A stretch of DNA of 51,152 nt. Origin: an uncultured Acidobacteriota bacterium (GTDB lineage: Bacteria; Acidobacteriota; Terriglobia; UBA7540). The position numbers and the translations under genes were made by a program. The notes beneath the pieces were generated by a model, which saw only the letters and a list, made by a program, of their open reading frames with translations, was not told where the DNA came from and did no database searches. Shown in pieces: positions 4,714 through 50,316 of the stretch. The DNA is taken from positions 1 to 51,152 of the forward strand of contig CAYTMD010000001.1 of the NCBI GenBank assembly GCA_964438685.1, read 5' to 3'. Each line of letters opens with the position of its first letter. Position 1 is the first letter of the stretch.

Positions 4714-5001
4714 ATGGTACTGTCACTCGGCCTTGCGGTTCTTGTGGCGGTCCCACCCCAGGTGCTGGCGCGGGGGCCTGACATCTGCTTGTGGAAGCAT
4801 CTGTTCCATCTTGCTGCCTGCCCCGCCTGTGGCAGCACTCGGGCGCTCGCCGCGTTTTTTCACGGACACCTCGCGGAGGCGCTGGCTTACAACCGCAATG
4901 TTTTGGTCACAGGGCCGTTGATGATTGGCCTTCTGATTCATGATGTCGCTTTGAGCCTTACCGGGCGGGGATCAGGGGGTCCTCCGAAGGGTAAAGTATA
5001 A
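4714..5001 (+). CDS. DUF2752-like small membrane protein
   Basis: ATG at 4714 inside the longer track ORF. CPACGSTRA (CPxCGxTR) motif followed by hydrophobic segments. Confidence 0.6.
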   Translation: MVLSLGLAVLVAVPPQVLARGPDICLWKHLFHLAACPACGSTRALAAFFHGHLAEALAYNRNVLVTGPLMIGLLIHDVALSLTGRGSGGPPKGKV

Positions 5002-5038
5002 AGGGTACGTAACTTCAGCCTTTACCCTTTATCCTTCC
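4987..5038. repeat. heptamer-based inverted repeat (AAGGGTA AAGTATA AAGGGTA / TACCCTTTAT)
   Basis: The left arm overlaps the last codons and stop (KGKV*) of the DUF2752 gene. The right arm CCTTTACCCTTTATCC follows about 15 nt later. The same AAAGGGTAAAG motif recurs at 29335-29346. Confidence 0.7.
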
Positions 5039-5119
5039 CTGCTTCCAGCCGCGGCGACGTGGTAGCTGGCCCGTGGTCTTGAATTCCTCCCCCAATTCCA
5101 ATAAAGTCTCAAGATCTCT

Positions 5120-6463
5120 GTGATTAGTGTTGAATACATCCTGGACCGGACGTGTGGCGACCTGCCGAGGCCCCCGCTTGCAAGATGGGCGGCTGTCCTC
5201 TTTACTCTATTTGTTCTGGCGCTCCAGATTTCGCTTGCCGCTTCTCAGGCTTTCCTGGCGGGCGCGGGACTCCTTTATGTGATTCACCTGTTGCGGGACC
5301 GGCCTAAGGTTTTCTTCCTGCCCGTAAAGCTCCCCCTTGCACTCTTTTGCATATTATCCATAGTTTCGATTTTCTGGGCGGCGAACCCTACGGCGGGGTG
5401 GTTTGCCATAAGGAAATTTGTACTTTTTCTCATCTGGCTGCTGGCAGTCAATCTTGTTGTCAGCGCGGACCAGTTGCGCCGGCTCCTGCTGAACTTCTTT
5501 CTTGTATCTTTCTTGACGAGCCTCGTGGGCATCGCGCAATTCATCATCCAGTATCGCGATGCGCGGGCGCATCATTCCGGGGAGCTTTACCATTACCTTA
5601 CGTCAGCGCGCATCCACGGGTTTATGGGACACTGGATGCACTTTGGCGGTCAGCAGATGATGGTCTTTGTTTTCCTGCTGGCATTCCTGCTGCTCGCGAG
5701 CGGTCGACACTCGAAAATCGAAATTCGAAACTCGGGACCTGAACGCCGAATTTCGAGTTCCGAGTTTCGAATTTCGGCCTTATGGTGGATGCTGCTCGCC
5801 CTCGTCACTGTTTCCATAATTCTGAGCTTCACCCGTGGAGTTTGGCTGGGTTGTTTCCTTGCCGGGGTCTATCTCCTGGCTCGATGGAAACCGAAGTGGC
5901 TCTTGGCAATGCCGATCCTGCTGGCATTGGCCTATGTAGGGGCGCCGTCGTTGCTGCGTGAGCGGGTCCATTTGGCGATGCATCCCACGCATGAACCCGC
6001 CCTGTCCATCCGCCTCGAAATGTGGCACGTCGCAATTAGGATGATCCGCGCGCACCCCTGGGTGGGAGTGGGCCCCAACAATATCGAAGAGGCTTACGAT
6101 CTTTACCTGCCGCCGGGGAAGACCCCGGAGGTGGGTTATCACAGCCACTTTCACAATGATTATCTTCAATTCGGTGCTGAGCGCGGATTGCCGTGCCTGG
6201 CTGCGTGGATGTGGCTCATGGCGGCCCTGGGCTGGTATACTTGGAGGCTTCGGCGAAGACTTTCCAGTCAAAGGTGGATCGCCGATGCTTCTCTGGCCGC
6301 TTGGCTGGCATTCCTGGCTGAGGGCTGTTTCGAATTCAACTTTGGTACCTCGCCGGTCCTCATGGTGTTTCTCTTTGTTACTTCTACCCCTTTTATAGCC
6401 GCAAGGGTTGTTCCTTCCGGAAAAGGCTCGGAGAATACAGACGACACCGCTCCGACGCGCTGA
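5120..6463 (+). CDS. O-antigen ligase / polymerase family membrane protein
   Basis: 447 aa, polytopic, GTG start. SFTRGVWLG and GYHSHFHNDYLQFGAERG segments are typical of the O-antigen ligase (Wzy_C) family. Confidence 0.75.
   Translation: MISVEYILDRTCGDLPRPPLARWAAVLFTLFVLALQISLAASQAFLAGAGLLYVIHLLRDRPKVFFLPVKLPLALFCILSIVSIFWAANPTAGWFAIRKFVLFLIWLLAVNLVVSADQLRRLLLNFFLVSFLTSLVGIAQFIIQYRDARAHHSGELYHYLTSARIHGFMGHWMHFGGQQMMVFVFLLAFLLLASGRHSKIEIRNSGPERRISSSEFRISALWWMLLALVTVSIILSFTRGVWLGCFLAGVYLLARWKPKWLLAMPILLALAYVGAPSLLRERVHLAMHPTHEPALSIRLEMWHVAIRMIRAHPWVGVGPNNIEEAYDLYLPPGKTPEVGYHSHFHNDYLQFGAERGLPCLAAWMWLMAALGWYTWRLRRRLSSQRWIADASLAAWLAFLAEGCFEFNFGTSPVLMVFLFVTSTPFIAARVVPSGKGSENTDDTAPTR
5711..5778. 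repeat. palindromic dispersed element lying in frame inside the ligase CDS
   Basis: Perfect 17-bp inverted repeat CGAAATTCGAAACTCGG (5719-5735) / CCGAGTTTCGAATTTCG (5760-5776). Translated as KIEIRNSGPERRISSSEFRIS. The 16-mer CGAAATTCGAAACTCG is identical at 9121-9136. Confidence 0.8.
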
Positions 6464-6529
6464 CCTTTTACAATTCTTAACAGCTATTTATAAGTGAATT
6501 GAGCCATTACAAGATACACTGTTTGCGAA

Positions 6530-8083
6530 ATGAACCCTAGACAGCAGATGTTGCGAAGTTCGGTGATTGTAGCGTTCTTTAACCTGCTGGGCGGGCTGAG
6601 CGGAATACTGGTGGAAACCAGTATCGCCGCAAATCTGGGGCTTTCGTTACGCTCTGACACGTTTTACGTCGCTTACACGATTCCTTACATCATCTCCAAC
6701 CTGCTTACGGCGACGAGCCAGTTTTCCCTGGTGCCATTCTTTGCTTCGCTCGAATCAGCCAAGGACGAAAACCAACTATGGCGCGGTTTCAGTTACGTCA
6801 CCAACATCCTTTTTCTTGGATTGGGGGCGATTGCCGTGGTGGGTGCGGTGACGGCGCCGTGGATTATTCACGCCATCGCTCCAGGGTTCTCGCCCCAACA
6901 CGTTGAAGTCGCCGCGCAACTCTCACGCTGGCTCTTTCTCATCATCATTCCCGCAGGGATAGGGGAAGTGCTGCGCTCATTTCTTCTCAGCCGGCACTAT
7001 TTCGCGATCTCAACGGCATCGGGCTTTATTCGCAACGTCGCCTCAATTTTGGTAATTCTCCTGGGATTTCACCGTTACGGCGCCCAGAGCATCTTCCTGG
7101 GGTATTTAGCCGGATACCTGTTGCAGTTGGTGGTTCTGGGTTCACAGATCCTGGTGTCCTCTCGCCCCCGCTATAGCATGACTCTGACCGGCAGTGGCAA
7201 GTCCTTCACCAACTTGCGCGGCGCGGGAACGGCGCAGTTGGCGGGGGCATTAGGCTGGCAGGGTGTGGTGGTGGTGGAACGCATCATTGCTTCATTTCTC
7301 CCCGCCGGGACGTTAACTGCCTTGAATTATGGCTTCCGCATACTCGGTACACTCGCCGAACTCCTTGGCGGTAGCGTTGGAACCGCTTCTTTACCGAGTC
7401 TTTCACGTGCCGTGGCGGCGGGTGACCATGACAAGGAACACAAAACTTTTCGTGACACACTGGAAATCAGCCTCTTACTTCTCTCTCCGATGGTGGTCTA
7501 TTGCCTGACGCTCAGTCACAACATCATCCGGCTGGTTTTCCAACGGGGCAACTTCACCGCTGAAGCCACCAGCCTGATGGCTTCAGTGTTTTTCTATTAC
7601 AGCCTCAGCTTGATCTTCTTCGCGCTCATTCGCTTACTGAGTTTTTATCTCTTTGCGCGCCTTGAGCCCGGAATATATTTCCGTTTGTCACTCTTCCAAT
7701 ACGTCGTAAACATAGTCTTTGATTTAATCTATGTGGGGGTTTTTCACCTCGGCGCAAAAGGGATTCCGCTCGGTTTTCTAACCAGCCTGGTAGTAGCCTG
7801 CGCTGTGGCTTATTGGCGGAATCTCGCCAGCTTTCAGCTCGTTGTTGACCGTACGCTTACCGCCTTTACCGGAAAGGCCGTTCTCGCCAGCGGGTTGGCA
7901 GCTTTGGTAATGCTGGGTCTGCGCGCCGCTTATGGCAATCCTCCCACCAACCCGGCGAATTTCGTTTACTTGTGCGTCATGTGCTCAACGGGTGGGCTGG
8001 TGTTCTTCGCCAGCATGGCCCTTTCCGGGGCGATTCGGATGGCGGACTTCTCCATCCTCTGGCGGCGCCCGGGAAACGCGTGA
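6530..8083 (+). CDS. MurJ/MviN-family (MOP superfamily) lipid-linked glycan flippase
   Basis: 517 aa, many TM helices. The N-terminal pattern (SDTFYVAYTIPYIISNLL) and the overall layout resemble MurJ/MviN. Confidence 0.75.
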   Translation: MNPRQQMLRSSVIVAFFNLLGGLSGILVETSIAANLGLSLRSDTFYVAYTIPYIISNLLTATSQFSLVPFFASLESAKDENQLWRGFSYVTNILFLGLGAIAVVGAVTAPWIIHAIAPGFSPQHVEVAAQLSRWLFLIIIPAGIGEVLRSFLLSRHYFAISTASGFIRNVASILVILLGFHRYGAQSIFLGYLAGYLLQLVVLGSQILVSSRPRYSMTLTGSGKSFTNLRGAGTAQLAGALGWQGVVVVERIIASFLPAGTLTALNYGFRILGTLAELLGGSVGTASLPSLSRAVAAGDHDKEHKTFRDTLEISLLLLSPMVVYCLTLSHNIIRLVFQRGNFTAEATSLMASVFFYYSLSLIFFALIRLLSFYLFARLEPGIYFRLSLFQYVVNIVFDLIYVGVFHLGAKGIPLGFLTSLVVACAVAYWRNLASFQLVVDRTLTAFTGKAVLASGLAALVMLGLRAAYGNPPTNPANFVYLCVMCSTGGLVFFASMALSGAIRMADFSILWRRPGNA

Positions 8084-8104
8084 AAGACCTTCGTTGCAAC
8101 CTAC

Positions 8105-9091
8105 ATGGAAATGGCCACTTACCGTGTTTTAGTGGTAACGAATCTTTGGCCTACGGAAGCTGACCCGGGATACGGCAGCTTTGTGAAGGCGCAGATGGAG
8201 TCGCTCCGCCCACTGGGAGTGGAGTTTGACGTTCTCTTCATTAATGGGCGCGAATCCAAATGGAATTACCTGCGCGGCATTTCCCAGGTCCGCCGGCAAT
8301 TGCGGGCGAAGCCATACGATCTGATCCATGCGCACTTTGGTCTTGCCGGGTGGGTGGCGCGTTTTCAGGACCGCGTGCCGGTGGTGGTTTCGTTCATGGG
8401 CGACGACGTTTTGGGCCGGCCCACACGCAGCGGACGGATTACCCTTGCCGGCCATTTCCTGCGAATCTCGGGATTCATTCTGGCGCGCTTGGCCACCTCC
8501 GTGATTGTGAAATCGCGGCAGATGGCTGCCAAGCTGTGCCTGCCCTCTGCGCACGTCATTCCCAACGGGGTTGACCTGAATCTATTCCACCCCACGCCAC
8601 AGAAGGAGGCACGCCAGACGCTGGGCCTCGAAGCCGGGAAAAAGTTTGTATTGTTTCCTTATAATCCTGACGAAGCTCGCAAGCGTTATGACCTGATCCA
8701 GGCCGCCGCTTCCCTGGCGCGCGCACAGGTGTCCAACCTCGAACTGGTGGTGGCTCGCGGCGTGCGGCAGGAACAGATTGCGCTCTACATGAACGCCGCC
8801 GATGTTATGGTGATGGCGTCCATTTTTGAAGGGTCGCCCAATGCGGTCAAGGAAGCCATGGCCACAAACCTTCCAGTGATTACCGTGGATGTCGGCGACG
8901 CCGCTGAATTGATCGGCCCCACCGACGGATGCCACCTGGTTCTGCGTGAGGCGCCTGCAATTGCGGAGAAGATCGTCGAAGTTTGCCGTCGCGGCGGACG
9001 CACGAACGGCCGCGAGTGGATTCGCAAACTGTCCATGGAAGCCGTGGCGCAGCAAATTGTTGATGTATACGCCGCGACTTTGCGGCGATGA
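8105..9091 (+). CDS. glycosyltransferase family 4
   Basis: 328 aa. C-terminal FEGSPNAVKEAMATNLPVI (EX7E-type) motif of GT-B retaining transferases. Confidence 0.8.
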   Translation: MEMATYRVLVVTNLWPTEADPGYGSFVKAQMESLRPLGVEFDVLFINGRESKWNYLRGISQVRRQLRAKPYDLIHAHFGLAGWVARFQDRVPVVVSFMGDDVLGRPTRSGRITLAGHFLRISGFILARLATSVIVKSRQMAAKLCLPSAHVIPNGVDLNLFHPTPQKEARQTLGLEAGKKFVLFPYNPDEARKRYDLIQAAASLARAQVSNLELVVARGVRQEQIALYMNAADVMVMASIFEGSPNAVKEAMATNLPVITVDVGDAAELIGPTDGCHLVLREAPAIAEKIVEVCRRGGRTNGREWIRKLSMEAVAQQIVDVYAATLRR

Positions 9092-9104
9092 TCCGACGAC
9101 GCGA

Positions 9105-9153
9105 GACGAAAATCGAAGCTCGAAATTCGAAACTCGCCACGAATTTCGATTGG
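9105..9153. repeat. copy of the CGAAATTCGAAACTCG dispersed element
   Basis: GACGAAAATCGAAGCTCGAAATTCGAAACTCGCCACGAATTTCGATTGG, directly after the GT4 stop. Confidence 0.75.
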
Positions 9154-9218
9154 TAAGACAGCCAGATTTCACAGATAGAGAATCCGTGTACTCTGCGTAA
9201 TCTTTGGACCTGATTAAA

Positions 9219-10391
9219 ATGCCAACGGACCAGGAACTGACCCGCGCCGCCGAGCGCCTTCATGCGCACCTGCTGAAACGCCATTGCTCTCAGGGATTGG
9301 TTCATGGCCCTGACGCCGGGGTTCGCTTCCAACTGCGGCTCTGGAGGTTTTTCAAGGCAGCCTTGGATTTTGTGCCGTGGAATGACGATTACGTCTTCAT
9401 GCAGTCGCACGGCTATTGGATCCTGTCCAACTGGATGCTTCACGAAGCGACGGGAGACCCGAAGTATCGCGCGCTTGCCCTGGAGAGTACGGAGGCCACG
9501 CTGCGGCTGCAGCAACCCGGCGGTTATTGGCTTTACCCGTTGCCTGAGCGCAAGCATCTTGTGGCCACCGTGGAGGGAAATTGGGGAGCCATCGGACTTC
9601 TGGCCACTTACGCCCGCGAACCCAGAAAAGAATTCATCGAGGCCGCGGTTCGTTGGTACGATTATCTGGTGGGAAGGATCGGCTTTCAAGCCCACACGTC
9701 CGGTAAGGCCATTAACTACTTTGATAAACCCCGCGGAAAGATTCCCAACAATTCCGTGGAGGCTGCATGGCTTTTTTTGCGCCTTTGGAAGGCGACCGGT
9801 GATGCGCGCTTTGTTGAGCACGTGGATGGGATGCTGGAATTCCTGGTGAATACACAGCTTCCCTCGGGGGAGTTACCTTACATCGTGGATGGCCCGTATG
9901 AAAAGGGGCGAACTCATTACCTCTGTTACCAGTACAATGCCTTTCAGTTTCTCAAGCTGGCCTGGGCGGCCTCGCTGCGACCTGATCCCCGGACACAACG
10001 CATCCTCCCGGCGCTTGCAGGCTTCCTTGCCAGGGGCATTACTCCCTCCGGCGCCAGCGCGGCTGATTGCTTTCACAGCAAACCGGAGACGGATTATTAC
10101 ACCGCCGTCCTGGCTGCGGCGCTCTACGAGGCACAGAAATTGCCGATTTTGGCCAAGGGTCAATCCTCATTCGTCAATCTTCTATCGGAAGCGCGGGAGG
10201 GAAGTGAGCGGTGTTATGCCCGCCTGCTCCAAAGGCAACGGCCCGACGGGAGCTTCGCCTATACCACTGGTGATTACGGCTTCCTGCGCGACGGCCGATC
10301 GTACCCCCGGCCGCAGGTCATGACGCTTTTCCACCTGCTCTGTCCAGAATGTGGAAACGGATTTGAAAGGATCGTGACGAATGACATGTGA
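9219..10391 (+). CDS. hypothetical protein, possibly an alpha/alpha-toroid polysaccharide-modifying enzyme
   Basis: The track ORF starts at TTG 9204; the first ATG is 9219. Repeated QPGGYW / QLPSGELPY / QRPDGSFAY segments suggest toroid-type repeats. The function call is a guess. Confidence 0.5.
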   Translation: MPTDQELTRAAERLHAHLLKRHCSQGLVHGPDAGVRFQLRLWRFFKAALDFVPWNDDYVFMQSHGYWILSNWMLHEATGDPKYRALALESTEATLRLQQPGGYWLYPLPERKHLVATVEGNWGAIGLLATYAREPRKEFIEAAVRWYDYLVGRIGFQAHTSGKAINYFDKPRGKIPNNSVEAAWLFLRLWKATGDARFVEHVDGMLEFLVNTQLPSGELPYIVDGPYEKGRTHYLCYQYNAFQFLKLAWAASLRPDPRTQRILPALAGFLARGITPSGASAADCFHSKPETDYYTAVLAAALYEAQKLPILAKGQSSFVNLLSEAREGSERCYARLLQRQRPDGSFAYTTGDYGFLRDGRSYPRPQVMTLFHLLCPECGNGFERIVTNDM

Positions 10392-10514
10392 CGAGTGACA
10401 AGCAAGCAAAACAAGGAGGCGAGTGTGCTCGACATAGGTAACTCGCCGCTTGGTACTTGCCACGCCTGTTGGATGCGAAACCCGTAATCTTGCTTGTCAC
10501 TTGTCACATGTCAC
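10374..10514. repeat. GTGACNA heptamer inverted-repeat pair
   Basis: Left arm GTGACGA ATGACAT GTGACGA GTGACAA GCAAG (10374-10405) overlaps the upstream stop (VTNDM*). Right arm CTTGCTTGTCACTTGTCACATGTCAC (10489-10514) ends 7 nt before the asnB ATG. About 24 of 26 positions are complementary. Confidence 0.85.
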
Positions 10515-10521
10515 TGCTCTT

Positions 10522-12378
10522 ATGTGCGGAATCTGTGGAGTTTTCAATTTCGGTACGGGCGAACCTGCTGATCCGGTGGCGCTGAAGCGTGCTACGGATG
10601 CCATGGCGCATCGTGGACCTGACGATGGGGGCTTCCACCTTGACGGCGCGGTGGGTCTCGGAAACCGGCGCCTGAGCATCATTGATTTGCCGGGCGGTCA
10701 TCAGCCCATCGCCAATGAGGATGAGTCCATCTGGATTACCTTCAACGGCGAAATTTATAACTATCAGGATCTGCGCCCGGACCTCATCAAACGCGGCCAC
10801 AAGTTCCGGACAAACAGTGACACGGAAACCATCCTGCACCTTTACGAAGAGTACGACTTCAGCTTCCTTGACCATTTGCGCGGCATGTTCGCATTTGCGA
10901 TTTGGGATAGCCGCAAGCGGCGGCTGTTGCTGGCGCGTGATCGACTGGGAGTCAAACCCCTCTTTTTCTGTGCAGACGGCGGCCGACTGGCGTTTGCTTC
11001 GGAATTACGCACGTTGCGCGAACTGCTGCCGCGGCCGCCGGAGATCGACCCGCAATCGATTTACGACTTTTTTGGATTTCGCTACGTCCCCGCCCCAAGA
11101 ACCTTCTACCGTGGCGTGGAAAAACTCCTGCCCGGCCATTTCCTGGTGGCTGACTCGACGGGCGTGCACAGCCACGCTTATTGGGACATTCCACCGGAGG
11201 AAGAGACCACGAAGTCACCCAACGAAATTGGGGCCGAAATTGTTGAGCAACTTCGCGAAGCCGTGCGGTTGCGGCTGATTGCCGACGTGCCGCTGGGAGT
11301 TTTTCTCAGTGGAGGGACGGATTCCAGCGCGGTCGTGGCGCTTATGGCTGAGCTCGGCGCGCGTCCGCTGCGCACCTTTTCCGTGGGATTTAACGAACCC
11401 GAATATAGTGAGTTGCCGTTCGCGCGCTCCGTGGCCACCCGGTATGCCACGGAGCATCAGGAACTTGTCGTTACGCCGGAGGACCTGAGCAGCGAACTGC
11501 CGCGACTGGTGGCGTTCCGCGATGAGCCTATCGCCGAACCCACCGACGTGGCGCTTTACCTGATGTCGCGATTGGCGGCGAAAAGCGTGAAGGTTGTCTT
11601 GGCAGGTGAAGGCAGCGACGAGTTGTTCGCCGGTTACCCCAAGTATTCCGCTGACCGGCTGGCAGGCTTGGTTTCGGCGTTGCCGCATGTCGTCACGCGC
11701 GCCCTCATCCGCCTGCTGCCTTATCGCCAGCACCGGGTGAAAACCGCGCTCGAGGCGCTTTCCATTCGCGATGAAGCGGAGCGGTCGGTGACGTGGTTTG
11801 CCTCCTTTTCGCGCCAGGAGCGGGAAAGCCTTTTTGCACCCGAATTTCTGGCGCAAGTTGACCCCGCGCATCCCGCCCGCGTCATTGAAGGCTATCTCGA
11901 AAAGGTGCGTGACCGCTCGCCGCTTAAACGGATGCTTTACGCCGACTTGAAGGTGTGGTTGCCGGATAACCTGCTCTTGCGCGGCGACCAGATGACCATG
12001 GCCGCGTCCATTGAAGAACGCGGACCGTTCCTCGATCACCGATTGGTGGAGATGGCGGCGCGACTTCCCACACGTCTGCTTACGCGCGGCTTCCAGACCA
12101 AAGCGTTGCTGAAAGACGCGCTGCGCCCCTTCGTGCCAGAGGAAGCGCTGTTCCGGCGCAAAGTCGGGTTCCGCGTGCCGGTAGGTGAATGGTTCCGGAA
12201 GCCCCTGCGTTCTTTGGTTGGAGACCTGCTCCTCTCTCCCGAAGCGAAGACGCGTGGGTATTTCAACGCTCACAGCATAGATAGCTTTGTTCGCGAGCAT
12301 TTTGATGGCGTTCGCGATCGCCAAAAACAACTGTGGGCTTTAATCAATTTTGAATTGTGGTGCCGACATGCCAAATGA
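10522..12378 (+). CDS. asnB: asparagine synthase (glutamine-hydrolysing) family amidotransferase
   Basis: Start reset to ATG 10522, giving MCGICGVFNF (Cys2 nucleophile). SGGTDSS PP-loop. Confidence 0.9.
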   Translation: MCGICGVFNFGTGEPADPVALKRATDAMAHRGPDDGGFHLDGAVGLGNRRLSIIDLPGGHQPIANEDESIWITFNGEIYNYQDLRPDLIKRGHKFRTNSDTETILHLYEEYDFSFLDHLRGMFAFAIWDSRKRRLLLARDRLGVKPLFFCADGGRLAFASELRTLRELLPRPPEIDPQSIYDFFGFRYVPAPRTFYRGVEKLLPGHFLVADSTGVHSHAYWDIPPEEETTKSPNEIGAEIVEQLREAVRLRLIADVPLGVFLSGGTDSSAVVALMAELGARPLRTFSVGFNEPEYSELPFARSVATRYATEHQELVVTPEDLSSELPRLVAFRDEPIAEPTDVALYLMSRLAAKSVKVVLAGEGSDELFAGYPKYSADRLAGLVSALPHVVTRALIRLLPYRQHRVKTALEALSIRDEAERSVTWFASFSRQERESLFAPEFLAQVDPAHPARVIEGYLEKVRDRSPLKRMLYADLKVWLPDNLLLRGDQMTMAASIEERGPFLDHRLVEMAARLPTRLLTRGFQTKALLKDALRPFVPEEALFRRKVGFRVPVGEWFRKPLRSLVGDLLLSPEAKTRGYFNAHSIDSFVREHFDGVRDRQKQLWALINFELWCRHAK

Positions 12379-13558: not shown

Positions 13559-13608
13559 GAGGCCGGTGCTATTACAGGAAGACTCGTAAGTGCTGTCATG
13601 AGGTACTG

Positions 13609-13663
13609 GGGAAAAATCGAAACTCGAAACCCGTGAACCAGACGCCGAATTTCCAGTTGCGAG
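13609..13663. repeat. copy of the dispersed palindromic element
   Basis: GGAAAAATCGAAACTCGAAACCCGTGAACCAGACGCCGAATTTCCAGTTGCGAG aligns along its length with 5713-5765. Confidence 0.7.
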
Positions 13664-13730
13664 CCCTTTTTAGCATTTCCCTGCTGTCACTCTTGCTCCG
13701 CGTCTCAGCGCCTCCGCGGTGAGATGAGCC

Positions 13731-38075: not shown

Positions 38076-38085
38076 AAATTTGCTG

Positions 38086-40013: not shown

Positions 40014-40042
40014 TTGACAGACGTCATCAAACCGCTTATACT
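40014..40042 (+). promoter_or_regulatory. near-consensus sigma70 promoter for the RHH-PIN cassette
   Basis: TTGACA (40014-40019), 17-nt spacer, TATACT (40037-40042). Confidence 0.5.
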
Positions 40043-40063
40043 CATAACCGGATATATGCTTAT

Positions 40064-43361: not shown

Positions 43362-43488
43362 ACGGGCTTGATGAGTACCCGACAATCGGGTGATCGCGTG
43401 ATCGGATGAACAAAAAGCCCACTCCGGCGGCATGTTGCCTTGTTCACCCGATCGTCGGATCACCGGATCACCCGATGGAGAAGAATTG

Positions 43489-44448
43489 ATGGCTGACGAG
43501 CACAGCGGAACTCCCCCCAAAGAAGGGCCGAAGGAAACGCCCTCGAAGAAAGGGTTCGACGCAATCCTGGGAGAGGTCCGCCAGACTGCTGAAGTTCTCA
43601 AAGACAAGGCGAAAGAGGATCTCCAGAGCTTGAAGCAGCCTGAGAAGACAACGCTCTTCAAGTCCATCTTCCGCGTCAAGCACGACGAGAGTCCCCGCAA
43701 CCGCGCTTTGAGCGTGCTTTCCAATGTCTTCCTACACCTGCACCCATCCAAAATTAATCGTGACGCGGTCCGCTACAGTTATACCTGGGGCATGGGCGGA
43801 ATCACTTTTTACCTGTTCATTGTCCTCACCCTCACTGGTGTGCTGCTGATGTATTACTACCACCCCACCAAAGGGCAAGCCTACCGCGACATTATCTATC
43901 TGATGAGCGATGTGCCCTTCGGATCGCTGCTCCGCAATATGCACCGATGGGCGGCGCACCTGATGATTATTACGGTGTGGCTGCACATGTTTCGCGTTTT
44001 TCTGACGGGATCGTATAAGAAGCCGCGTGAGTTTAATTGGTGTGTGGGCGTAATTCTGTTGGTCCTCACCATGTTGCTCTCCTTCACCGGCTATTTGCTG
44101 CCTGACGATCAACTGGGATTCTGGGCGGTAACCGTGGGGACCAATATGGCGCGCGCAACGCCCTTCCTGGGGAATGAAGGACCTGGGGGGCCGCAGCTCG
44201 GCATGACTCCATACAACGACGTGCGTTTCGCGCTGCTCGGCGGATCCATTGTTGACGCCAACGCCCTCTTGCGCGCTTATATCTGGCACTGCATCGCCAT
44301 CCCCCTGATTGGCGGCGTCTTTATGGGTGTGCATTTCTGGCGGGTAAGAAAAGACGGTGGCATCTCTGGTCCCGCTCCCGTCGTGCTGGAACAGGAAGCA
44401 TTGAAGGCGAAGGTGCTGCCGTACGTTATACCGCAGCATACGGAGTGA
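43489..44448 (+). CDS. cytochrome b, N-terminal (b6-like) subunit
   Basis: ATG at 43489 after GGAGAAG. RNMHRWAAHLMIITVWLHMFRVFLTGSYKKPRE haem-ligand region. Confidence 0.9.
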   Translation: MADEHSGTPPKEGPKETPSKKGFDAILGEVRQTAEVLKDKAKEDLQSLKQPEKTTLFKSIFRVKHDESPRNRALSVLSNVFLHLHPSKINRDAVRYSYTWGMGGITFYLFIVLTLTGVLLMYYYHPTKGQAYRDIIYLMSDVPFGSLLRNMHRWAAHLMIITVWLHMFRVFLTGSYKKPREFNWCVGVILLVLTMLLSFTGYLLPDDQLGFWAVTVGTNMARATPFLGNEGPGGPQLGMTPYNDVRFALLGGSIVDANALLRAYIWHCIAIPLIGGVFMGVHFWRVRKDGGISGPAPVVLEQEALKAKVLPYVIPQHTE

Positions 44449-44452: not shown

Positions 44453-44550
44453 CTGCTGTCAGCAATCAGCTATCAGCAGTCAGCTAAGGCACTACCTCAT
44501 AGCTGACCGGCGGTAGCTGAAGGCTGATAGCTGAAAGCTGATAGCTGAAA
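44453..44550. repeat. heptamer inverted repeat (CAGCTAT CAGCAGT / GCTGAAG GCTGATA GCTGAAA GCTGATA GCTGAAA)
   Basis: ATCAGCTATCAGC (44465-44477) is complementary to GCTGATAGCTGA(T) at 44523-44534 and again at 44538-44549. It occupies essentially the whole spacer between the two cytochrome b genes. Confidence 0.8.
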
Positions 44551-45486
44551 ATGGACTGGCATCAACTCTGGGAAATTACCTCCGCTCCCGATAACGTTCC
44601 CATTGTGGCGTTGATCGGCCTGGTGCCTTTCTACACGTGGTACGGGATTCGGCAGGCGCTGGCCAATGACCGCCTCATTGCGCAACTTGAGGCCGACCCG
44701 CAACTCGCCAAGACGCATCACCGCAAGACGCTGCCCTGGAAGCCTGGCTGGACCAAGGAAGTTCCGGTTTGGCCTTTCCTCCTGCGGATTGAGTTCCTGG
44801 CCGCCATTGTCGTGACCGTCATCCTGATGATTTGGGCCATCACGCTCAACGCACCACTGGAAGAACTGGCGAACCCCAACCTGACGATGAATCCTGCCAA
44901 AGCGCCGTGGTACTTCCTGGGACTTCAGGAGATGCTGGTCTACTTCGATCCCTGGATGGCGGGCGTGGTGATGCCCACACTGATCATCATCGGATTGATG
45001 GTCATTCCTTACATTGACGCCAACCCGCTCGGCTCCGGGTACTACACGTGGAAGCAGCGGCGTTTCGCCATTGGGACATTCTGCTTCGGCTTCATGCTGC
45101 TTTGGCTGTTGATGGTGGTCATCGGCACCTTCATTCGTGGGCCGGGCTGGATGTGGTTCTGGCCGGGACAGACGTGGGACCCCAACCGCCAGGTGTTCGA
45201 GGTGAACCGCGATTTGCCGGATATGTTCTTCATCACTTCTGCCTGGGGAAAAACCATTTTTGGCGCACTGGTCATGGGCATCTACTTTGCTGTGGCGGGC
45301 GGAGCGGTCCATGTGCTCATCACCTGGAATGATTTCAACAAGAAGATTTACCAGAAAATGAGCTTCTTGCAGTACATGACGATGCAAGCGTTTGTGACGA
45401 TTATGATGCTGCTGCCGATCAAAATACTGATCCGGCACTTGTTAAGAATTAAGTACATCTGGGTAACGCCCTGGTTCAATCTTTGA
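44551..45486 (+). CDS. cytochrome b C-terminal / subunit IV-like membrane subunit
   Basis: PAKAPWYFLGLQEML (PEWY-type) motif; polytopic, 311 aa. Confidence 0.8.
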   Translation: MDWHQLWEITSAPDNVPIVALIGLVPFYTWYGIRQALANDRLIAQLEADPQLAKTHHRKTLPWKPGWTKEVPVWPFLLRIEFLAAIVVTVILMIWAITLNAPLEELANPNLTMNPAKAPWYFLGLQEMLVYFDPWMAGVVMPTLIIIGLMVIPYIDANPLGSGYYTWKQRRFAIGTFCFGFMLLWLLMVVIGTFIRGPGWMWFWPGQTWDPNRQVFEVNRDLPDMFFITSAWGKTIFGALVMGIYFAVAGGAVHVLITWNDFNKKIYQKMSFLQYMTMQAFVTIMMLLPIKILIRHLLRIKYIWVTPWFNL

Positions 45487-45490
45487 AAAG

Positions 45491-45619
45491 CAGTGACAAG
45501 TGACGAGTGACAAGTGACAAGTAAATACGAAGCTCGAATTTGAAACTGGTGACGATTTTCTGATTTCGACAGTAAAGGGAACAGGCCGCTTGTCACTTTT
45601 CACTTGTCACTCGTCACTG
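45491..45619. repeat. GTGACAA/GTGACGA heptamer inverted-repeat pair with a nested dispersed-element copy
   Basis: Left arm GTGACAA GTGACGA GTGACAA GTGACAA (45493-45520) and right arm CTTGTCACTTTTCACTTGTCACTCGTCAC (45589-45617). The loop contains ACGAAGCTCGAATTTGAAACTGG, related to 9113-9136. Confidence 0.85.
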
Positions 45620-45635
45620 TTCTTGGGGGTTCCGG

Positions 45636-48600
45636 TTGCCTGAGGAAAAAGATCCCGTCACGACATCATCGCTTGCCACGCTTTTGGTGATCTCGTCCGT
45701 GCTCTTGACGCTGACACTGGTATGGGCGCTCTACAATGAGTTTTTCGGCCTGCGCCCGTGGAAGGTCTATCAGCGCGATTTTGCCAGCCGCTACCAGACC
45801 TTCCTGAAGAAACAGATTCCCAAGCAAAAGGCCGCGGAAAAGGAAATCCTGGCATCGGCGGAATATCAGCAACTCAATCAACAGCTTGAGGCGCTGGAAG
45901 CTGACGTGAAGGGAAAGTCCGAGGAGGCCGACAAGCAGATCGCCATCCTGGACGCCCGGTTCTCAGCCCTCACCGATACCTTTACCACGGCGCGCGCCTA
46001 TGTGGCCGAGCAGGTTTACCACATCGAGCACACCTCGGTGAGCGGGCAGCCTTCATTGCAAAAACAATTGACCAAGTATGAGGCTGGTCCGTTCGAGCTT
46101 TCTCTACCCACGCTTCCCGACGGGGCACGCGTCAAAGGCACCTACACCTTCCAGCAATTGCAGGAGGAGTTTAATCGGGTTCAGCTCGACAAAGCGAAAA
46201 TGCTGGAAGAGAAGTCGGCAATGCTTCGTCCGGTTTCCGAGTTGCGCAAGAAGCGTGACTCCTACCTTGCTGATCATCTTGATGGCCTGACCGCCGATCA
46301 ATTACGCGGATTGCTGAAAAAGTCAGAGGACGCCGCGGTGGAGATCCGGCAAATCAATAATCCGGATGCGGAAATTGTGGACCGTTGCGAGTCCTGCCAC
46401 GCCGGCATTCGCGAACCGGTCGCCATCACTGCCAAGGATATGGGTGGAAAGGCAGTTTTTGTTAGCCACCCTGACCCGGAATTGTTGAAGCTTCACGACC
46501 CGGAAAAGTTCGGCTGCTCGCCTTGCCACGGCGGCGATGGTATGGCGGTGGAGAGTGTTGAAAGGGCGCACGGTAAGTATGAACACTGGCTGTGGCCGCT
46601 CCACCCGAAGGAGAACGTTGAGGCCGGCTGCCAGCAATGCCACGCCATGGATATGGTGGTGAATCGCGCCCCAGTGCTGAGTTACGGCAAGGAACTGTTT
46701 CAACGCCGCGGCTGCGTGGGCTGTCACCGCTTCCAGAACTACGATCCAGAGCCGGAAGAAATGGCGGCCGTGCAGCAACAGGTTATTCAGCTTGAAAACC
46801 AGCGTCACGACGCGCAACACGACATTGAGCATGACATTCAGTTGGGCGATGCCGCACCTGACAACGAATCAGCGCGCAAGTATTACACCCAGGCAGACAT
46901 GCTTCGGGTTTCCATCAGCGACATTGACGGCCGCCTGGAGCAGTTCGACCGGCGCTCCAAGGATCTGCTCCGTGACATGAAGAAAGTAGGCCCGGACCTT
47001 AAAGAAGTGCGCGTGAAGATCCACCCCGATTGGATCCCAGTATGGATTTCCAATCCCCACACCTGGCGGCCCGGCACACGTATGCCGCGTTTCCGGTTGG
47101 CCGACGACGAAGTCAAAGCGATTGCAGCCTTCGTTTGGCAGAGTGGAATCGACGGTTCGCTGCCCCAGCAGCAACCCGGCGATCCCGTAAAGGGTAAGGA
47201 AAGCTTTGAAACCCGCGGCTGTATGGGCTGCCATTCCCTTGACGAAAACAATCCTGGCTTCGCCGCCAACCTCTCGCGAGTGGGAGAAAAGGACAACTAC
47301 GATTACCTGGTGCGTTGGGTTCACAATCCCCGCGAGCGCACACGCCCCTACTGCGCGTTTGAAAAGCGCGACCTGACGGAAGATGATTACAAGCGCCACG
47401 GATTGCCCTACGTCTTCGACCTTGACCACACCAAGTGCCCGAATGACGGCCACGAGTTGCAGGTGGAGCAGGAAACCATCATGCCCAACCTGCGACTGTC
47501 GCTGCAGGAAGCCCGCGATATCGCCAGTTACCTGATGACCCTGAAACAGCAGGAACCCTCATCATATGCGCACGCTGACTACTTGAACGATCCCAGCCTC
47601 AAGGTCAAAGGCCACGCCCTGGTGCAGCGATACGGGTGCGCGGGTTGCCACGAAATTTCCGGCATGGAAGAAGAAGGCCGGATCGGCACCGAACTTACCA
47701 AGGAAGGCTCCAAGCCGATCGAGCAGATTGATTTTGCCCTGCTCACAGCAAAGGCGCGCCAACAGGGCTGGTATGACCATAAGGGATTCTTCGAACATAA
47801 GCTCGAGAAGCCGGAAGTCTATGACACCGGCCGCGATTGGAAGGACCGCGATCCCAACGAGCGCCTGCGCATGCCCGACTTTGAAATGAAGCCGCAGGAA
47901 ATCTCCTCCCTCACCACGTTCCTGATGGGAGCGGTGGAATCGCAAGTGCCGCCGCGTTACTGGGACGCTCCCGAAGACCAGCGGCGCGATATCCAGGAAG
48001 GTTGGTGGGTGGTCAAGAAATACAACTGCATGGGTTGCCATCAATTCACGGTGGGGCAGTCAAGCCGGCTGATGACCCTAGATCGCTATCAAACGCCGGA
48101 GTGGAAAGACCAATTGCCGCCCAAGCTGATGGGCGAAGGCGCGCGGGCCAATCCCGACTGGATGCTGAAATTCCTGAATAACCCGGCGATGGACGCCAAG
48201 GACACGGACCGCAACGGTGTGCGGCCTTACCTGAAGGTACGAATGCCCACGTTCTTCTTCTCGCCCATTGAGATCCGCAAACTCGTGCGATTCTTCCAGG
48301 CGCTTTCGGGCCAGCCCATGCCCTATATCCCGCCCAAGCTCGATCCGCTGAGCGACCAGGAAATCGCCATGGCAAGGGCACTGTTCACCAGCAAAGCCGC
48401 GCCCTGCCTGAAATGCCATGCCACGGGCGAAGCCTCGCACGACAAGTTTGCCACTGCGCCCAATTTCCTTCTGGCGCGCGACCGGCTGAAGCCCGGGTGG
48501 GCCCGCCGGTGGATGCTCGATCCATCCATGATCAGCCCCGGCACCGCCATGCCTTCCGGCTTGTTCAAACCGGTCGCCGACCACTACGTCTTTGCCGGTC

Positions 48601-48827
48601 CCACGCCTGATATCTTCAAGGGTTACGACGGCGACCAGCCTGAACTACTGGTGCGCTATCTGTTCGAGATTACGCCGGAGGAGCAGCACCGATTGGTGGG
48701 CATGAGCGCGGGCGCGGTGAAAACGACTGAAATCAGGCGTCAGAAGTCAGGAGTCAGGAGCCAGAATCAAAGGCCACGTGGCCCCCTTGCTGCTAGGATG
48801 GAACTTGGTATCGGCATCGAACGCTAA
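45636..48827 (+). CDS. membrane-anchored octahaem c-type cytochrome (1063 aa)
   Basis: Eight CxxCH motifs: CESCH, CSPCH, CQQCH, CVGCH, CMGCH, CAGCH, CMGCH, CLKCH. N-terminal TM helix, then a ~200-aa coiled-coil-like region. TTG start at 45636 with no early in-frame ATG. Confidence 0.85.
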   Translation: MPEEKDPVTTSSLATLLVISSVLLTLTLVWALYNEFFGLRPWKVYQRDFASRYQTFLKKQIPKQKAAEKEILASAEYQQLNQQLEALEADVKGKSEEADKQIAILDARFSALTDTFTTARAYVAEQVYHIEHTSVSGQPSLQKQLTKYEAGPFELSLPTLPDGARVKGTYTFQQLQEEFNRVQLDKAKMLEEKSAMLRPVSELRKKRDSYLADHLDGLTADQLRGLLKKSEDAAVEIRQINNPDAEIVDRCESCHAGIREPVAITAKDMGGKAVFVSHPDPELLKLHDPEKFGCSPCHGGDGMAVESVERAHGKYEHWLWPLHPKENVEAGCQQCHAMDMVVNRAPVLSYGKELFQRRGCVGCHRFQNYDPEPEEMAAVQQQVIQLENQRHDAQHDIEHDIQLGDAAPDNESARKYYTQADMLRVSISDIDGRLEQFDRRSKDLLRDMKKVGPDLKEVRVKIHPDWIPVWISNPHTWRPGTRMPRFRLADDEVKAIAAFVWQSGIDGSLPQQQPGDPVKGKESFETRGCMGCHSLDENNPGFAANLSRVGEKDNYDYLVRWVHNPRERTRPYCAFEKRDLTEDDYKRHGLPYVFDLDHTKCPNDGHELQVEQETIMPNLRLSLQEARDIASYLMTLKQQEPSSYAHADYLNDPSLKVKGHALVQRYGCAGCHEISGMEEEGRIGTELTKEGSKPIEQIDFALLTAKARQQGWYDHKGFFEHKLEKPEVYDTGRDWKDRDPNERLRMPDFEMKPQEISSLTTFLMGAVESQVPPRYWDAPEDQRRDIQEGWWVVKKYNCMGCHQFTVGQSSRLMTLDRYQTPEWKDQLPPKLMGEGARANPDWMLKFLNNPAMDAKDTDRNGVRPYLKVRMPTFFFSPIEIRKLVRFFQALSGQPMPYIPPKLDPLSDQEIAMARALFTSKAAPCLKCHATGEASHDKFATAPNFLLARDRLKPGWARRWMLDPSMISPGTAMPSGLFKPVADHYVFAGPTPDIFKGYDGDQPELLVRYLFEITPEEQHRLVGMSAGAVKTTEIRRQKSGVRSQNQRPRGPLAARMELGIGIER

Positions 48828-48995
48828 GACTAGGGAAACCAGGCGACAGGAGTCAGAAGTCAGGAGTCAGAATGGAAGGCTGGGTGGCCCCTTCGACATC
48901 GAACCGTAACACCGGAGGCACGGGGGAAACAGGAGCTAGATGTAAAACATCAGGCTCGAGGTGCTTTTTGTTCTGACTCCTGTCTCCTGACTCCT
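48731..48995. repeat. CAGGAGT/CAGAAGT heptamer element: two tandem direct copies plus one inverted arm
   Basis: Copy A 48731-48835 (inside the cytochrome 3' end), copy B 48838-48912, inverted arm TTCTGACTCCTGTCTCCTGACTCCT 48971-48995. Confidence 0.8.
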
Positions 48996-49018
48996 ATTTT
49001 GAAAGGAAGGTTCTTCCG

Positions 49019-49798
49019 ATGAACAACCGAAAATGGATGTGGCTGTTTGCAAGTGTGGTGGTTCTGGCTTTGGTGGGATGCAGCAAGAAGGAAGAAACTC
49101 CCACGGAAGCGCCAACGGAAACCACCACTCAAGCGCCCACGCCGATTGACCAATCGACGGTGGGCCAGGTAACGGGCAAGATTTCCTTCGAGGGCGCCAA
49201 GCCCTCGCCCAAACAGATCATGATGGACCAGGATCCGGTTTGCGTGCAGAAGCACAGCGGCAAAGTCTTTGCTGAGGACGGCACAGTGAATGGCGATGGC
49301 ACATTGTCCAACGCGTTCATCTACGTCAAAGCAGGAGCCGAGAAGTACACCTTTGCTCCGCCGGCTGACTCCGTTACGCTTGATCAGGACGGTTGCATGT
49401 ATAAACCCCATGTACTGGGCATCATGACCGGCCAAATCCTGAAGATTGTTTCCAGCGACGCCACGACGCACAACATTCATCCCATGCCCAAGGACAATCG
49501 CGAGTGGAATATGTCGCAGGCCCCGGGCGCCGCGCCCATTGAACAAAAGTTCGCGCGGCCGGAAATCATGGTGCCGGTAAAGTGCAACCAGCACCCCTGG
49601 ATGCGCGCGTGGATCGGTGTAACCTCAAACCCCTTCTTTGCCGTGTCGGGCAGCGACGGTACATTCACCATCACAGGGCTGCCCCCGGGGGATTACACCA
49701 TCGAAGCTTGGACAGCGACCTTCGGCACGCAGGAACAGAAAGTGACCGTGGGAGCGAAAGAAACCAAGACCGTCGATTTCAAGTTCAAAGCATCGTAA
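49019..49798 (+). CDS. lipoprotein with cupredoxin (type-1 copper) and CarboxypepD_reg-like domains
   Basis: Lipobox LVGC. THNIH...CNQHPWM ligand spacing resembles amicyanin (CTPHPFM). C-terminal GTFTITGLPPGDYTIEAW. Confidence 0.6.
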   Translation: MNNRKWMWLFASVVVLALVGCSKKEETPTEAPTETTTQAPTPIDQSTVGQVTGKISFEGAKPSPKQIMMDQDPVCVQKHSGKVFAEDGTVNGDGTLSNAFIYVKAGAEKYTFAPPADSVTLDQDGCMYKPHVLGIMTGQILKIVSSDATTHNIHPMPKDNREWNMSQAPGAAPIEQKFARPEIMVPVKCNQHPWMRAWIGVTSNPFFAVSGSDGTFTITGLPPGDYTIEAWTATFGTQEQKVTVGAKETKTVDFKFKAS

Positions 49799-49800
49799 GA

Positions 49801-49870
49801 AACAGGAGTCAGAAGTCAGGAGCCAGGAGTCAGAATGCGGACAAGCGGCGCGCGTGGGGCGCGCCGCATC
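49801..49870. repeat. fourth copy of the CAGGAGT/CAGAAGT element
   Basis: AACAGGAGTCAGAAGTCAGGAGCCAGGAGTCAGAATG, followed by the GGCGCGC gtggg GCGCGCC hairpin. Confidence 0.75.
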
Positions 49871-50044
49871 TTGCAGGCACGAGAGTCGGTTCAGGGCGAT
49901 ACGGTTAATTACAAGCGAACATAAGTGAAAGCGCGCTCGGCTGCGCATCGGCGGGAGTGCCCGTCTACTTCGATTCACATTCCTCGCCCCCTTGCCCGGA
50001 TTATTCATTAGAGGACAAGCGGAGGGACGGCTTTAAGAATGTTT

Positions 50045-50166
50045 CACACGGAGTCCACGGAGTGTTTTATGGATCGAATTACGGAAGCGTTTGACCACAG
50101 AGTGCACAGAGAACATCTCGGGACCTCTCTGTGGTCTCTGTGCCTTAACTCTGTGACCTCTGTGCG
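50045..50166. repeat. CACAGAG / CTCTGTG motif inverted repeat cluster
   Basis: CCACAGAGTGCACAGAG (left) against four CTCTGTG copies on the right. The spacing is 9-13 nt, so it is not strictly 7-periodic. Confidence 0.6.
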
Positions 50167-50280
50167 AAATTCTTTGCCGCCCTCCATCGCTGCAAGAAGT
50201 TCATGAATAATCCGGGCCTTGGGAGAGCGGGAAGATGAATCCCTGGTTTTGGTGCTGTATTGGAGCGGTCCGTTAAGGCT

Positions 50281-50316
50281 TTGAGCTGATCGCTGAAAGC
50301 TGAGAGCTGACAGCTT
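50281..50316. repeat. single arm of GCTGA-type heptamers
   Basis: GAGCTGA TCGCTGA AAGCTGA GAGCTGA CAGCTTG. Related to the units at 44516-44550. No partner arm was seen. Confidence 0.6.

Follow-up and report, generated by a model that had tools for sequence, protein, structure and literature searches.

Inverted heptamer arrays in the gene junctions of an uncultured acidobacterial clade

What process builds a gene spacer out of two mirrored arrays of seven-nucleotide units, and why do operons tolerate the result? The question is raised by a 51,152-nucleotide (nt) contig of an uncultured Terriglobia bacterium of the phylum Acidobacteriota (CAYTMD010000001.1, here called the window), in which an initial annotation had noticed about ten intergenic spacers with a left and a right arm of tandem heptamers that are reverse complements of each other. 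Our favoured explanation, held at a probability of roughly 0.45, is that slippage grows the arrays, templating at the DNA level mirrors the arms, and a hairpin in the mRNA re-joins the upstream stop codon and the downstream start codon, so that operon junctions tolerate the elements.

Heptamer arrays and their place between genes

Period-7 arrays, often scoring higher at a period of 14, were recovered by Tandem Repeats Finder (TRF) at every locus cited in the initial annotation, and an inverted-repeat scan recovered the inverted arms with 72–100% complementarity. Pairing was 27 of 27 for the arms starting at 31425 and 31568, 96% for both 10382/10489 and 19402/19511, 92% for 48848/48971, 91% for 20437/20507, 86% for 45486/45589 and 84% for 44455/44514, and was weakest at 29320/29391 (78%) and 18192/18238 (72%). 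The two perfect cores quoted earlier (19409–19426 with 19511–19528, and 20438–20453 with 20513–20528) are exact reverse complements, the ATG at 19569 does lie within a right arm, and the arms at 49803–49833 and 50285–50316 are indeed unpaired. Across the loci the longest perfect cores were 10–26 nt, with stems of 25–35 bp and loops of 15–190 nt.

The period of these arrays was measured with a detector that required at least 15 matches in windows of 18 lag-p comparisons. Lag 7 yielded 15 segments, lag 14 yielded 10 and lag 8 a single one; the remaining lags from 4 to 16 were empty, and no lag-7 segment appeared in 30 dinucleotide-preserving shuffles. On a curated gene map, in which 85% of the window is coding, array density was 44.8 nt/kb in non-coding DNA versus 2.46 nt/kb in coding DNA; this 18-fold excess bears out the intergenic enrichment that had been proposed as a check. 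In all there are 16 repeat loci in 51 kb, and the loci fold far better than their shuffles (RNAfold, z −2.8 to −8.5). Four of them were absent from the initial list (5696–5799, 9105–9150, 13605–13665 and 43385–43476).

At least eight unit families are present, and many arrays are 14-nt repeats in which two heptamer variants alternate. The earlier statement that the unit differs between most loci holds in part: the units are not all locus-specific, and several recur at two or three loci, namely GTGACRA (10374, 31425 and 45486), TCGAAAN (5696, 9105 and 13605), CAGGAGT (48730–49000 and 49803), GCTGANA (44455 and 50285) and AAGGGTA (4985 and 29320).

The loci are listed below with folds from RNAfold. 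L161, like all labels of this form, denotes a contig of the comparative set, which covers eight orthologous junctions across some 170 related contigs.

4985–5040, unstranded: hairpin A, AAGGGTA/AAGTATA arms with their complement; the upstream stop codon (4999–5001) lies inside the left arm; perfect core 10 nt; −20.1 kcal/mol, z −4.2; near-identical in L161.
5696–5799, plus strand: hairpin B, TCGAAAN arms with their complement, in frame within the O-antigen-ligase-like gene 5120–6463 and translated as ..SKIEIRNS..RISSSEFRIS..; found by the inverted-repeat scan and TRF; −55 kcal/mol, z −8.5.
9105–9150, unstranded: single TCGAAAN arm of four to five units followed by a 10-nt complementary stub (CGAATTTCGA); TRF periods 7 and 14; identical in L161.
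10374–10514, unstranded: hairpin C, GTGACRA arms with 96% pairing; the left arm codes for the final six residues and the stop (10389–10391) of gene 9204–10391, and the right arm ends 8 nt 5′ of the asnB-like ATG at 10522; −65.3 kcal/mol, z −7.6.
13605–13665, unstranded: short, decayed TCGAAAN hairpin between convergent genes; the lag-7 detector marks 13613–13633.
18192–18266, unstranded: hairpin D, GTAGACN/GCATACG arms between the stop of gene 17136–18188 and the prfA ATG at 18274; −28.9 kcal/mol, z −3.3.
19402–19571, unstranded: hairpin E, CGATTGN / NCAATCG arms between the prfA stop (19393–19395) and the prmC ATG at 19569; an extra right-arm copy at 19549–19570 and a decayed inner hairpin in the centre; perfect core 19 nt; −61.7 kcal/mol, z −4.1.
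20437–20537, unstranded: hairpin F, ATGAATT/CTGAATT arms; the prmC stop (20442–20444) lies inside the left arm; core 17 nt; z −3.7.
29320–29417, unstranded: hairpin G, AAGGGTA-type arms with 78% pairing; ends about 8 nt 5′ of the next start; −30.2 kcal/mol, z −3.0.
31425–31594, unstranded: hairpin H, GGCAGTGACAAGTGACGAGTGACAAG arms complementary at 27 of 27 positions (31425–31451 with 31568–31594); TRF period 14 at 100%; between convergent genes, with both stops (31438–31440 and 31572–31574) within the arms; −87.4 kcal/mol, z −8.3.
43385–43476, unstranded: hairpin of 8-nt units, GTGATCGN with its complement, 5′ of the cytochrome b gene 43432–44448; TRF period 8; 84% pairing; −44.4 kcal/mol, z −4.6.
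44455–44550, unstranded: hairpin J, TCAGCNA / GCTGANA arms; the right arm adjoins the ATG at 44551; −55.1 kcal/mol, z −7.6.
45486–45624, unstranded: hairpin K, GTGACRA arms between the stop at 45484–45486 and a Shine-Dalgarno motif with a TTG start at 45636; remnants of a TCGAAAN pair in the centre; −57.1 kcal/mol, z −6.2.
48730–49000, unstranded: composite L, two direct CAGGAGT/CAGAAGT arms (48730–48766 and 48845–48872), with a related centre of about 75 nt after each, and an inverted arm at 48971–48998; −102 kcal/mol, z −2.8.
49803–49833, unstranded: unpaired CAGGAGT/CAGAAGT array directly after the stop of gene 49019–49798, found by TRF, with no complementary partner within the 516-nt spacer.
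50285–50316, unstranded: unpaired GCTGANA array, found by TRF, whose end falls on the TTG that starts the COX2-like gene (50315).

The process that forms these repeats is not strictly heptameric, because the units at 43385–43476 are 8 nt long and lags of 8 and 9 make up a minority of the arrays in relatives.

The arms had been described as bracketing whole spacers, often from the upstream stop to the next start, and this geometry was confirmed in the comparative set. Over 85 array-bearing spacers, the median distance from the stop codon to the beginning of the outermost helix was 1 nt (interquartile range −16 to 13), the median distance from the end of the helix to the start codon was 9 nt (interquartile range 2 to 19), and the helix spanned 91% of the spacer. 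In most orthologues of the window's clade that carry the CGATTGN hairpin between prfA and prmC, the right arm reaches into the ATG. Shine-Dalgarno-like motifs 5′ of starts were found in 13 of 62 cases with arrays versus 44 of 114 without. Arrays occurred in 28% of co-directional spacers (85/304), 15% of convergent spacers and 6% of divergent spacers (3/50), a difference with a Fisher p of 0.001 on counts that are pseudo-replicated.

The arms are also handed. Across the window and the related loci the 5′ arm is purine- and G-rich, with a mean purine fraction of 0.60, and the 3′ arm is pyrimidine-rich (purine 0.43); purines exceed 50% in 46 of 67 5′ arms versus 19 of 67 3′ arms (p = 5e-8). As a pointer to the direction of transcription this polarity was rejected. 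A purine-rich 5′ arm is intrinsic to the palindrome and identical on both strands, and therefore carries no information on gene direction; the check on minus-strand operons had one case.

Gain, loss and replacement at orthologous junctions

The many closely related metagenome contigs allow the evolution of the elements to be followed through empty and filled junctions, slippage, unit replacement, nesting, and the invasion of C-termini and of one coding loop. The 1.22 Mb of sequence surrounding prmC in 80 species held 105 segments at lag 7 and at most 20 at every other lag. Array density in this set was 1.9–2.0 per 10 kb at a PrmC identity of at least 72% and 0.2 below that identity. Around the cytochrome gene it fell from 3.7 per 10 kb (identity at least 90%) to 0.6 (69–74%). 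Over both neighbourhoods, relatives at or above 72–75% amino acid identity have 1.9–3.7 arrays per 10 kb, and more distant ones 0.2–0.6. The arrays are thus confined to one clade of uncultured Terriglobia.

Within this clade the same junction may be empty or filled, and filled in different ways. Between prfA and prmC, L030 has a spacer of 3 nt (TGACCATG), and several other genomes have short ones. The window's clade has CGATTGN / NCAATCG arms there, in several cases with a nested TCAGTTN / NAACTGA hairpin in the centre; in the sister clade the CAGTT hairpin stands alone; and in the remaining genomes the arms are GAAGGCA or CAGAAGC, or there is one single arm of 12 units. The inner CAGTT hairpin shares the loop AGGCATT[T/A]ACTGA with the sole hairpin of the sister clade, which suggests that the outer arms were added later. 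L091 points the other way, as its outer arms are decayed GTGAC units and its inner ones fresh AAGTCCG units.

In nine distant relatives the prmC-dinB junction measures 6 nt (TGAnnnnnnATG); in the clade it holds four different hairpin families or inserted genes. In several relatives an extra small gene replaces the hairpin or stands beside it (at 1804–2199 in L001, about 430–550 nt after prmC in L016, L018 and L019, and about 530–660 nt after prmC in L005, L011 and L020). This junction is an insertion hot spot for several kinds of insert.

The junctions of the cytochrome b gene were compared in contigs whose flanking protein is 71–97% identical to that of the window, with several unit families found at 90–97%. 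At least eight unit families occupy the upstream junction (AGCTGAT, CATTGAG, GTGACAA, AGTCGAA, AAGGGTA, CTGTCAA, GGGAACA and CTGAGTC) and at least five the downstream one, and empty junctions read TAACATG or TGATATG, or consist of about 30 nt with a GGAGG Shine-Dalgarno motif. The spacers orthologous to hairpin J carry different units at 90–97% amino acid identity. The hairpin K junction is empty (about 30 nt) in L090 and L092–L096 and carries different units in L081 and L083–L086, and spacers orthologous to hairpin D have identical or different units. Even L161, at 95% nucleotide identity to the window, leaves three repeat loci almost unchanged and carries AAGTCCG arms in place of GTGACRA at 10374–10514.

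These empty junctions give 'bracketing whole spacers' a simple cause, namely short ancestral junctions: where the ancestral junction is 3–30 nt, any insert occupies the whole spacer. Because the elements lie at gene 3′ ends and in very short operon junctions, the stem spans the distance from the stop to the next start and at times overruns coding tails. In every orthologue of gene 9204–10391, whichever left arm is present codes for the residues that follow the conserved CGNGFER motif, and this tail differs between relatives. The multihaem cytochrome open reading frame (ORF) 45636–48827 likewise reads through the first CAGGAGT arm to a stop about 60 nt beyond it, in the hairpin centre, so that its last 30 or so residues are repeat-encoded. 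For annotation, this means that gene ends and short C-terminal tails in these genomes are repeatedly rewritten by repeats.

Over the eight junctions, a strict detector marked 88 array-bearing spacers, 58 of them paired and 30 with a single arm, and each orthologous junction held 4–15 distinct units. Between contigs that are 94–96% identical, 8 of the 18 indels in or near arrays were multiples of 7, mostly of one unit (examples are ACTGACG, CTGACAA, TAGGGGT and TTTGCCC), and many of the blocks beyond alignment were array-bearing spacers. One-unit slippage and wholesale replacement of units are therefore both ongoing. The elements are gained, lost, nested and swapped between families far faster than the flanking genes diverge, yet complementarity between the two arms is always retained.

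Pairing of the arms at the level of DNA or RNA

Aligned to the reverse complement of its own right arm, the left arm scored a median of 15. The median dropped to 6 when the right arm was taken from the orthologous spacer of a different genome, and left arms compared with left arms across genomes scored 6–9. Co-variation of the arms between relatives, which had been named as a second check, therefore came out in favour of the finding.

The cleanest test of co-variation is hairpin B, because its reading frame fixes orthology. Homologues as distant as about 62% identity still conserve the hairpin B peptide, and in six of seven orthologues examined the DNA keeps the heptamer fold. In their alignment 75.9% of cells pair, versus 25–50% with the partner columns slid. 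Ten pairs were altered on both sides, a number reached by 6 of 500 shuffles, which averaged 5.6. One orthologue is longer by exactly 21 nt, equivalent to three heptamers or seven codons.

Paired changes of this kind have more than one possible source. In quasi-palindrome template switching (the Ripley model, from E. coli and T4), one arm of an imperfect inverted repeat is copied onto the other, which predicts 'compensatory' changes without RNA selection and without a G·U bias. To our knowledge, such switching is known for point mutations in short quasi-palindromes and not as the maintenance of arm-length arrays. Stems maintained as RNA would leave more G·U than A·C on the sense strand. No such excess was found: among 1x1 mismatches within Watson-Crick helices there were 36 G·U and 29 A·C (p = 0.46, in a test of low power), which fits maintenance at the DNA level, and crude ungapped arm alignments gave 26 G·U and 25 A·C, with no RNA-strand bias. 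Fold stability of sense versus antisense spacers was rejected as a measure of RNA selection, as array-free spacers show an equal bias (the sense strand folds better in 125 versus 56 spacers without arrays and in 60 versus 27 with them).

The favoured explanation starts with replication slippage, by which the arrays would grow and homogenise. A putative DNA-level process, such as intrastrand template switching or gene conversion within the quasi-palindrome, would then mirror the arms, and seeds would reach other loci by copying or recombination. In the mRNA, the long hairpin would place the upstream stop beside the downstream start, so that insertions into tightly coupled operon junctions would be tolerated. 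The benefit, if any, would be generic (3′-end protection, processing or preserved coupling) and not gene-specific regulation. The absence of the elements in close relatives, their occurrence between convergent genes and within a gene, and the overrun protein tails fit an element that acts at the DNA level, is largely neutral or selfish, and is tolerated.

A different reading gives the hairpins a selected role in punctuating operons as RNA. The ribosome at the stop would melt the base of the stem, or be handed across it, coupling the two genes; or the hairpins, as long and nearly perfect stems, would be RNase III sites or blocks to 3′-exonucleases and so fix the relative amounts of the cistrons. 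For hairpins of cyanobacterial heptamers these roles have been suggested before (PMC2670836). The stop-to-start geometry, the right arm that enters the prmC ATG, the rarer Shine-Dalgarno-like motifs, the preference for co-directional over divergent spacers, the co-variation of the arms and the better conservation of arms than centres all favour it. Against it stand the missing G·U excess and a sense-strand stability bias that is the same with and without arrays. Hairpins are also missing from the same junction in close relatives, their units are swapped wholesale at 94–97% identity, they occur between convergent genes and in a coding region, and single arms are common (30/88). On this evidence we consider RNA punctuation possible, if unlikely.

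The hairpin may also be a working part of expression. The stop at the 5′ base of the stem and a start without a Shine-Dalgarno motif at its 3′ base would let the terminating ribosome re-initiate across 100–270 nt, as a bacterial counterpart of hairpin shunting, with the stems supplied by a clade-specific DNA process that writes mirrored arrays. We regard this as quite doubtful. If it were true, a single mechanism would explain the heptamers of cyanobacteria, Beggiatoaceae, Bacteroidetes and Acidobacteria alike.

Some observations concern mobility. Identical 21-mers, with variant units in the same order, occur at non-orthologous loci and across genomes; the left arms at 31425 and 45486 are almost identical over about 30 nt; and the ends GGCAGT...ACTGCC are common to many unit families. 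These features, together with the nested hairpins and the compact hairpins with 4–15-nt loops in L016, L019 and L086, would suit non-autonomous mobile elements, similar to REP doublets (REPINs; REP, repetitive extragenic palindrome) or miniature inverted-repeat transposable elements (MITEs). These would be compact palindromes that an enzyme from another part of the genome, such as a Y1/HUH single-strand transposase, copies to new sites, and later insertions into the loop would give nesting and locus-specific centres. No target-site duplication was found at filled versus empty orthologous sites, as IS200/IS605-type transposition predicts. On the other side, scans of 50 window ORFs against NCBIfam and Pfam gave no transposase, and the window's ORFs include no RAYT (Y1 transposase) gene. 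The unit families number in the dozens and not one to three, the arms are not palindromic REP units in themselves, the insertion points have no constant target sequence, and one-unit indels show that arrays also evolve in place. The centres within a family, including those of the three GTGACRA loci of the window, appear unrelated, as judged by eye without alignment. A mobile origin of this type therefore seems to us unlikely. A direct repeat flanking hairpin B, TGCTGCTCGC, was rejected as a target-site duplication; because the hairpin B insert is ancient and conserved, two Leu-rich codon runs are preferred.

Several points also weigh against the favoured explanation of slippage and DNA-level mirroring. 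The recurring 21-mers and the shared GGCAGT...ACTGCC ends point to copying between loci, possibly by a dedicated mobilising enzyme. A hairpin that persists in a coding region down to about 62% amino acid identity fits structural selection as well as it fits tolerance. The same is true of the greater conservation of arms than centres in orthologous hairpins of the same family (80% versus 64% identity, with the arm figure flattered by repetitiveness) and of the depletion of arrays in divergent, promoter-bearing spacers; all three are signs of a link to expression. Neither the handedness of the arms nor the period of 7 is accounted for by the proposed mechanism. The tests themselves are limited by the low power of the G·U comparison and by junction counts that are pseudo-replicated across related genomes. 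Promoter-spacer depletion, the stop-to-start geometry, the fewer Shine-Dalgarno-like motifs, the 21-mers and the common ends would still allow a function in the transcript or a mobilising enzyme. With so many closely related contigs, a long-standing descriptive puzzle becomes a testable one, of templating at the DNA level versus selection at the RNA level, and of whether translational coupling is preserved.

Gene setting and comparison with known systems

The window's host belongs to the uncultured Terriglobia. Its PrmC matched solely metagenome-assembled genomes of uncultured Terriglobia or Acidobacteriota, with a best identity of 87%, and its cytochrome b subunit is up to 97% identical to contigs from peat and soil metagenomes. 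Judged by these protein matches, the window is therefore acidobacterial and not cyanobacterial. Its genes are ordinary chromosomal ones, and include an exopolysaccharide/PEP-CTERM-type cluster, prfA-prmC-dinB, RNase HII, ferrochelatase, a split cytochrome b with a multihaem cytochrome, and COX2. No tRNA or tmRNA was found in the window by ARAGORN, and Rfam 15 gave no match at gathering score on either strand of the whole window.

Other features of the window concern its chromosomal position and accessory genes. Two near-identical palindromes, ATGTTTCACGTGGAACAT and ATGTTTCACGTGAAACAT, lie at 35341–35358 and 35520–35537 and adjoin rsmG/gidB (34636–35301, Pfam GidB). They fit what we take to be the parS consensus, TGTTNCACGTGAAACA, and their place beside rsmG/gidB suggests that the window is near the replication origin. 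The neighbouring region 35300–38400 is low in GC (0.51 versus 0.57 for the window), has several ORFs without a Pfam match, and may be an acquired island beside the putative parS sites. Two direct copies of a 35-nt AT-rich, self-palindromic sequence (TTGAGAAATCTAAA...TTTAGATTTCTCAA) at 21806–21840 and 21919–21953 bracket a GC-rich centre directly 5′ of a DUF4143/AAA_14 ATPase gene (21954–23135), which is present in just three relatives (L001, L002 and L004). This layout resembles a pair of operators serving an accessory gene. A ribbon-helix-helix and PIN-domain gene pair at 39974–40791 is a putative type II toxin-antitoxin module. Finally, a distinct inverted repeat at 50040–50170, with CACAGAG / CTCTGTG motifs spaced by about 9–10 nt, belongs to a second repeat family of the clade and is also found in spacers of L012, L037, L116 and L136.

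The elements were compared with known classes of bacterial repeat. In agreement with the initial annotation they are not CRISPR: TRF and the inverted-repeat scan found head-to-tail 7-nt units in inverted pairs and no array of spaced direct repeats. Nor are they ordinary terminators. Like intrinsic terminators they place a stable stem directly after the stop codon, but their loops are long, most have no T-run, and most lie inside operons directly 5′ of the next start. A terminator consensus scan of 9000–22000 flagged none of five hairpins, with a total at shuffle level, and at least 7 T in the 15 nt downstream were found at 3 of 10 loci (short T-rich tails follow 18267, 29417 and 48995).

REP elements, with the mosaic elements (BIMEs) and REPINs built from them, resemble these hairpins as extragenic hairpins at gene 3′ ends and in operons without target-site duplication, and are known for generic effects on mRNA stability. 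However, a REP unit is an imperfect palindrome of 20–40 nt with a GTAG/CGTC head, in one to three RAYT-tied families per genome, whereas the arms here consist of tandem heptamers from many families and are not palindromic. An arm on its own does not fold on itself and pairs just with the opposite arm, which upholds the earlier exclusion of classical REP/BIME. REPINs are also similar in forming inverted doublets with a spacer between them (PMC3116915). MITEs, such as the cyanobacterial Nezha, were rejected on the grounds that no flank is duplicated between filled and empty sites and that the centres of the GTGACRA loci appear unrelated by eye.

Closer parallels exist among heptamers. MacGregor (2015) described arrays of TAACTGA and other heptamers in Beggiatoaceae, Cyanobacteria (Microcystis) and some Bacteroidetes, which are almost entirely intergenic, end one to a few nt 5′ of start codons, and are matched in relatives by shorter, repeat-free spacers (PMC4679880). 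The arrays of the window share the intergenic position, the ending at or over a start codon, the repeat-free relatives and the patchy occurrence across phyla. The Beggiatoaceae have one dominant unit in direct repeats, with one inverted case in 170 sets (PMC4679880), whereas here there are dozens of units, mostly in inverted pairs. The TAACTGA family itself was rejected, as no exact tandem dimer of it occurs in 866 kb of clade DNA; related TCAGTTN/NAACTGA units do occur there. CspB is noted to bind one heptamer per protein (PMC4679880). By analogy, the arrays could be docking sites for a protein each of whose domains recognises about 7 nt (for example an OB-fold of the cold-shock or S1 type), forming a post-transcriptional regulon as proposed for TAACTGA, and the right arms of the window do abut starts in the same way. 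We hold this to be highly improbable: the presence of at least 15 unrelated units at a single junction does not fit one sequence-specific reader, the pairing of most arrays would make them double-stranded, and the downstream genes have no common function.

The STRR elements (short tandemly repeated repetitive sequences) of cyanobacteria, to which the initial annotation had pointed, proved to be the right comparison. The arrangement as matched inverted arms, of which it knew no description, has already been reported, as 7-bp STRR hairpins in cyanobacterial spacers (PMC2670836, PMC2408588). Devine et al. (2009) called such hairpins 'not unusual in filamentous cyanobacteria', cited them between hupS and hupL in four strains, and proposed a role in transcript stability or translational coupling (PMC2670836). 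One Nostoc spacer in Table 3 of PMC2408588 carries ttgtcagttgtcagttgtca plus ccactgactactgac (ttgtcag repeats and their complement), and heptamer repeats overlapping start codons are described in a Nostoc preprint (bioRxiv 10.1101/2022.06.06.494920).

The elements of the window share with STRR sequences the tandem 7-nt intergenic units, the high copy number, the several families and the folding of some spacers into hairpins (there including hupS-hupL and the region upstream of hoxW). They are likewise dispersed and mainly intergenic. They differ in their host, which is not a cyanobacterium, in lacking the STRR1-3 units, and in that inverted pairing is the rule here (58 of 88 array-bearing spacers) and occasional there. 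The classical units, reportedly described by Mazel et al. in 1990, are CCCCAGT, TTGGTCA and CAACAGT; no exact tandem dimers of these three units, or of TTGTCAG, were found in the 866 kb of clade DNA. Our literature search found no description of heptamer hairpins of this kind in Acidobacteria, or of the cross-genome turnover and arm co-variation of heptamer hairpins. The cyanobacterial repeats have been known since 1990 without an accepted origin or function. The elements described here are an acidobacterial lineage of this known, STRR-like heptamer kind and not a new architecture, and their occurrence in an unrelated, uncultured phylum of soil and peat means that heptamer hairpins are no cyanobacterial peculiarity.

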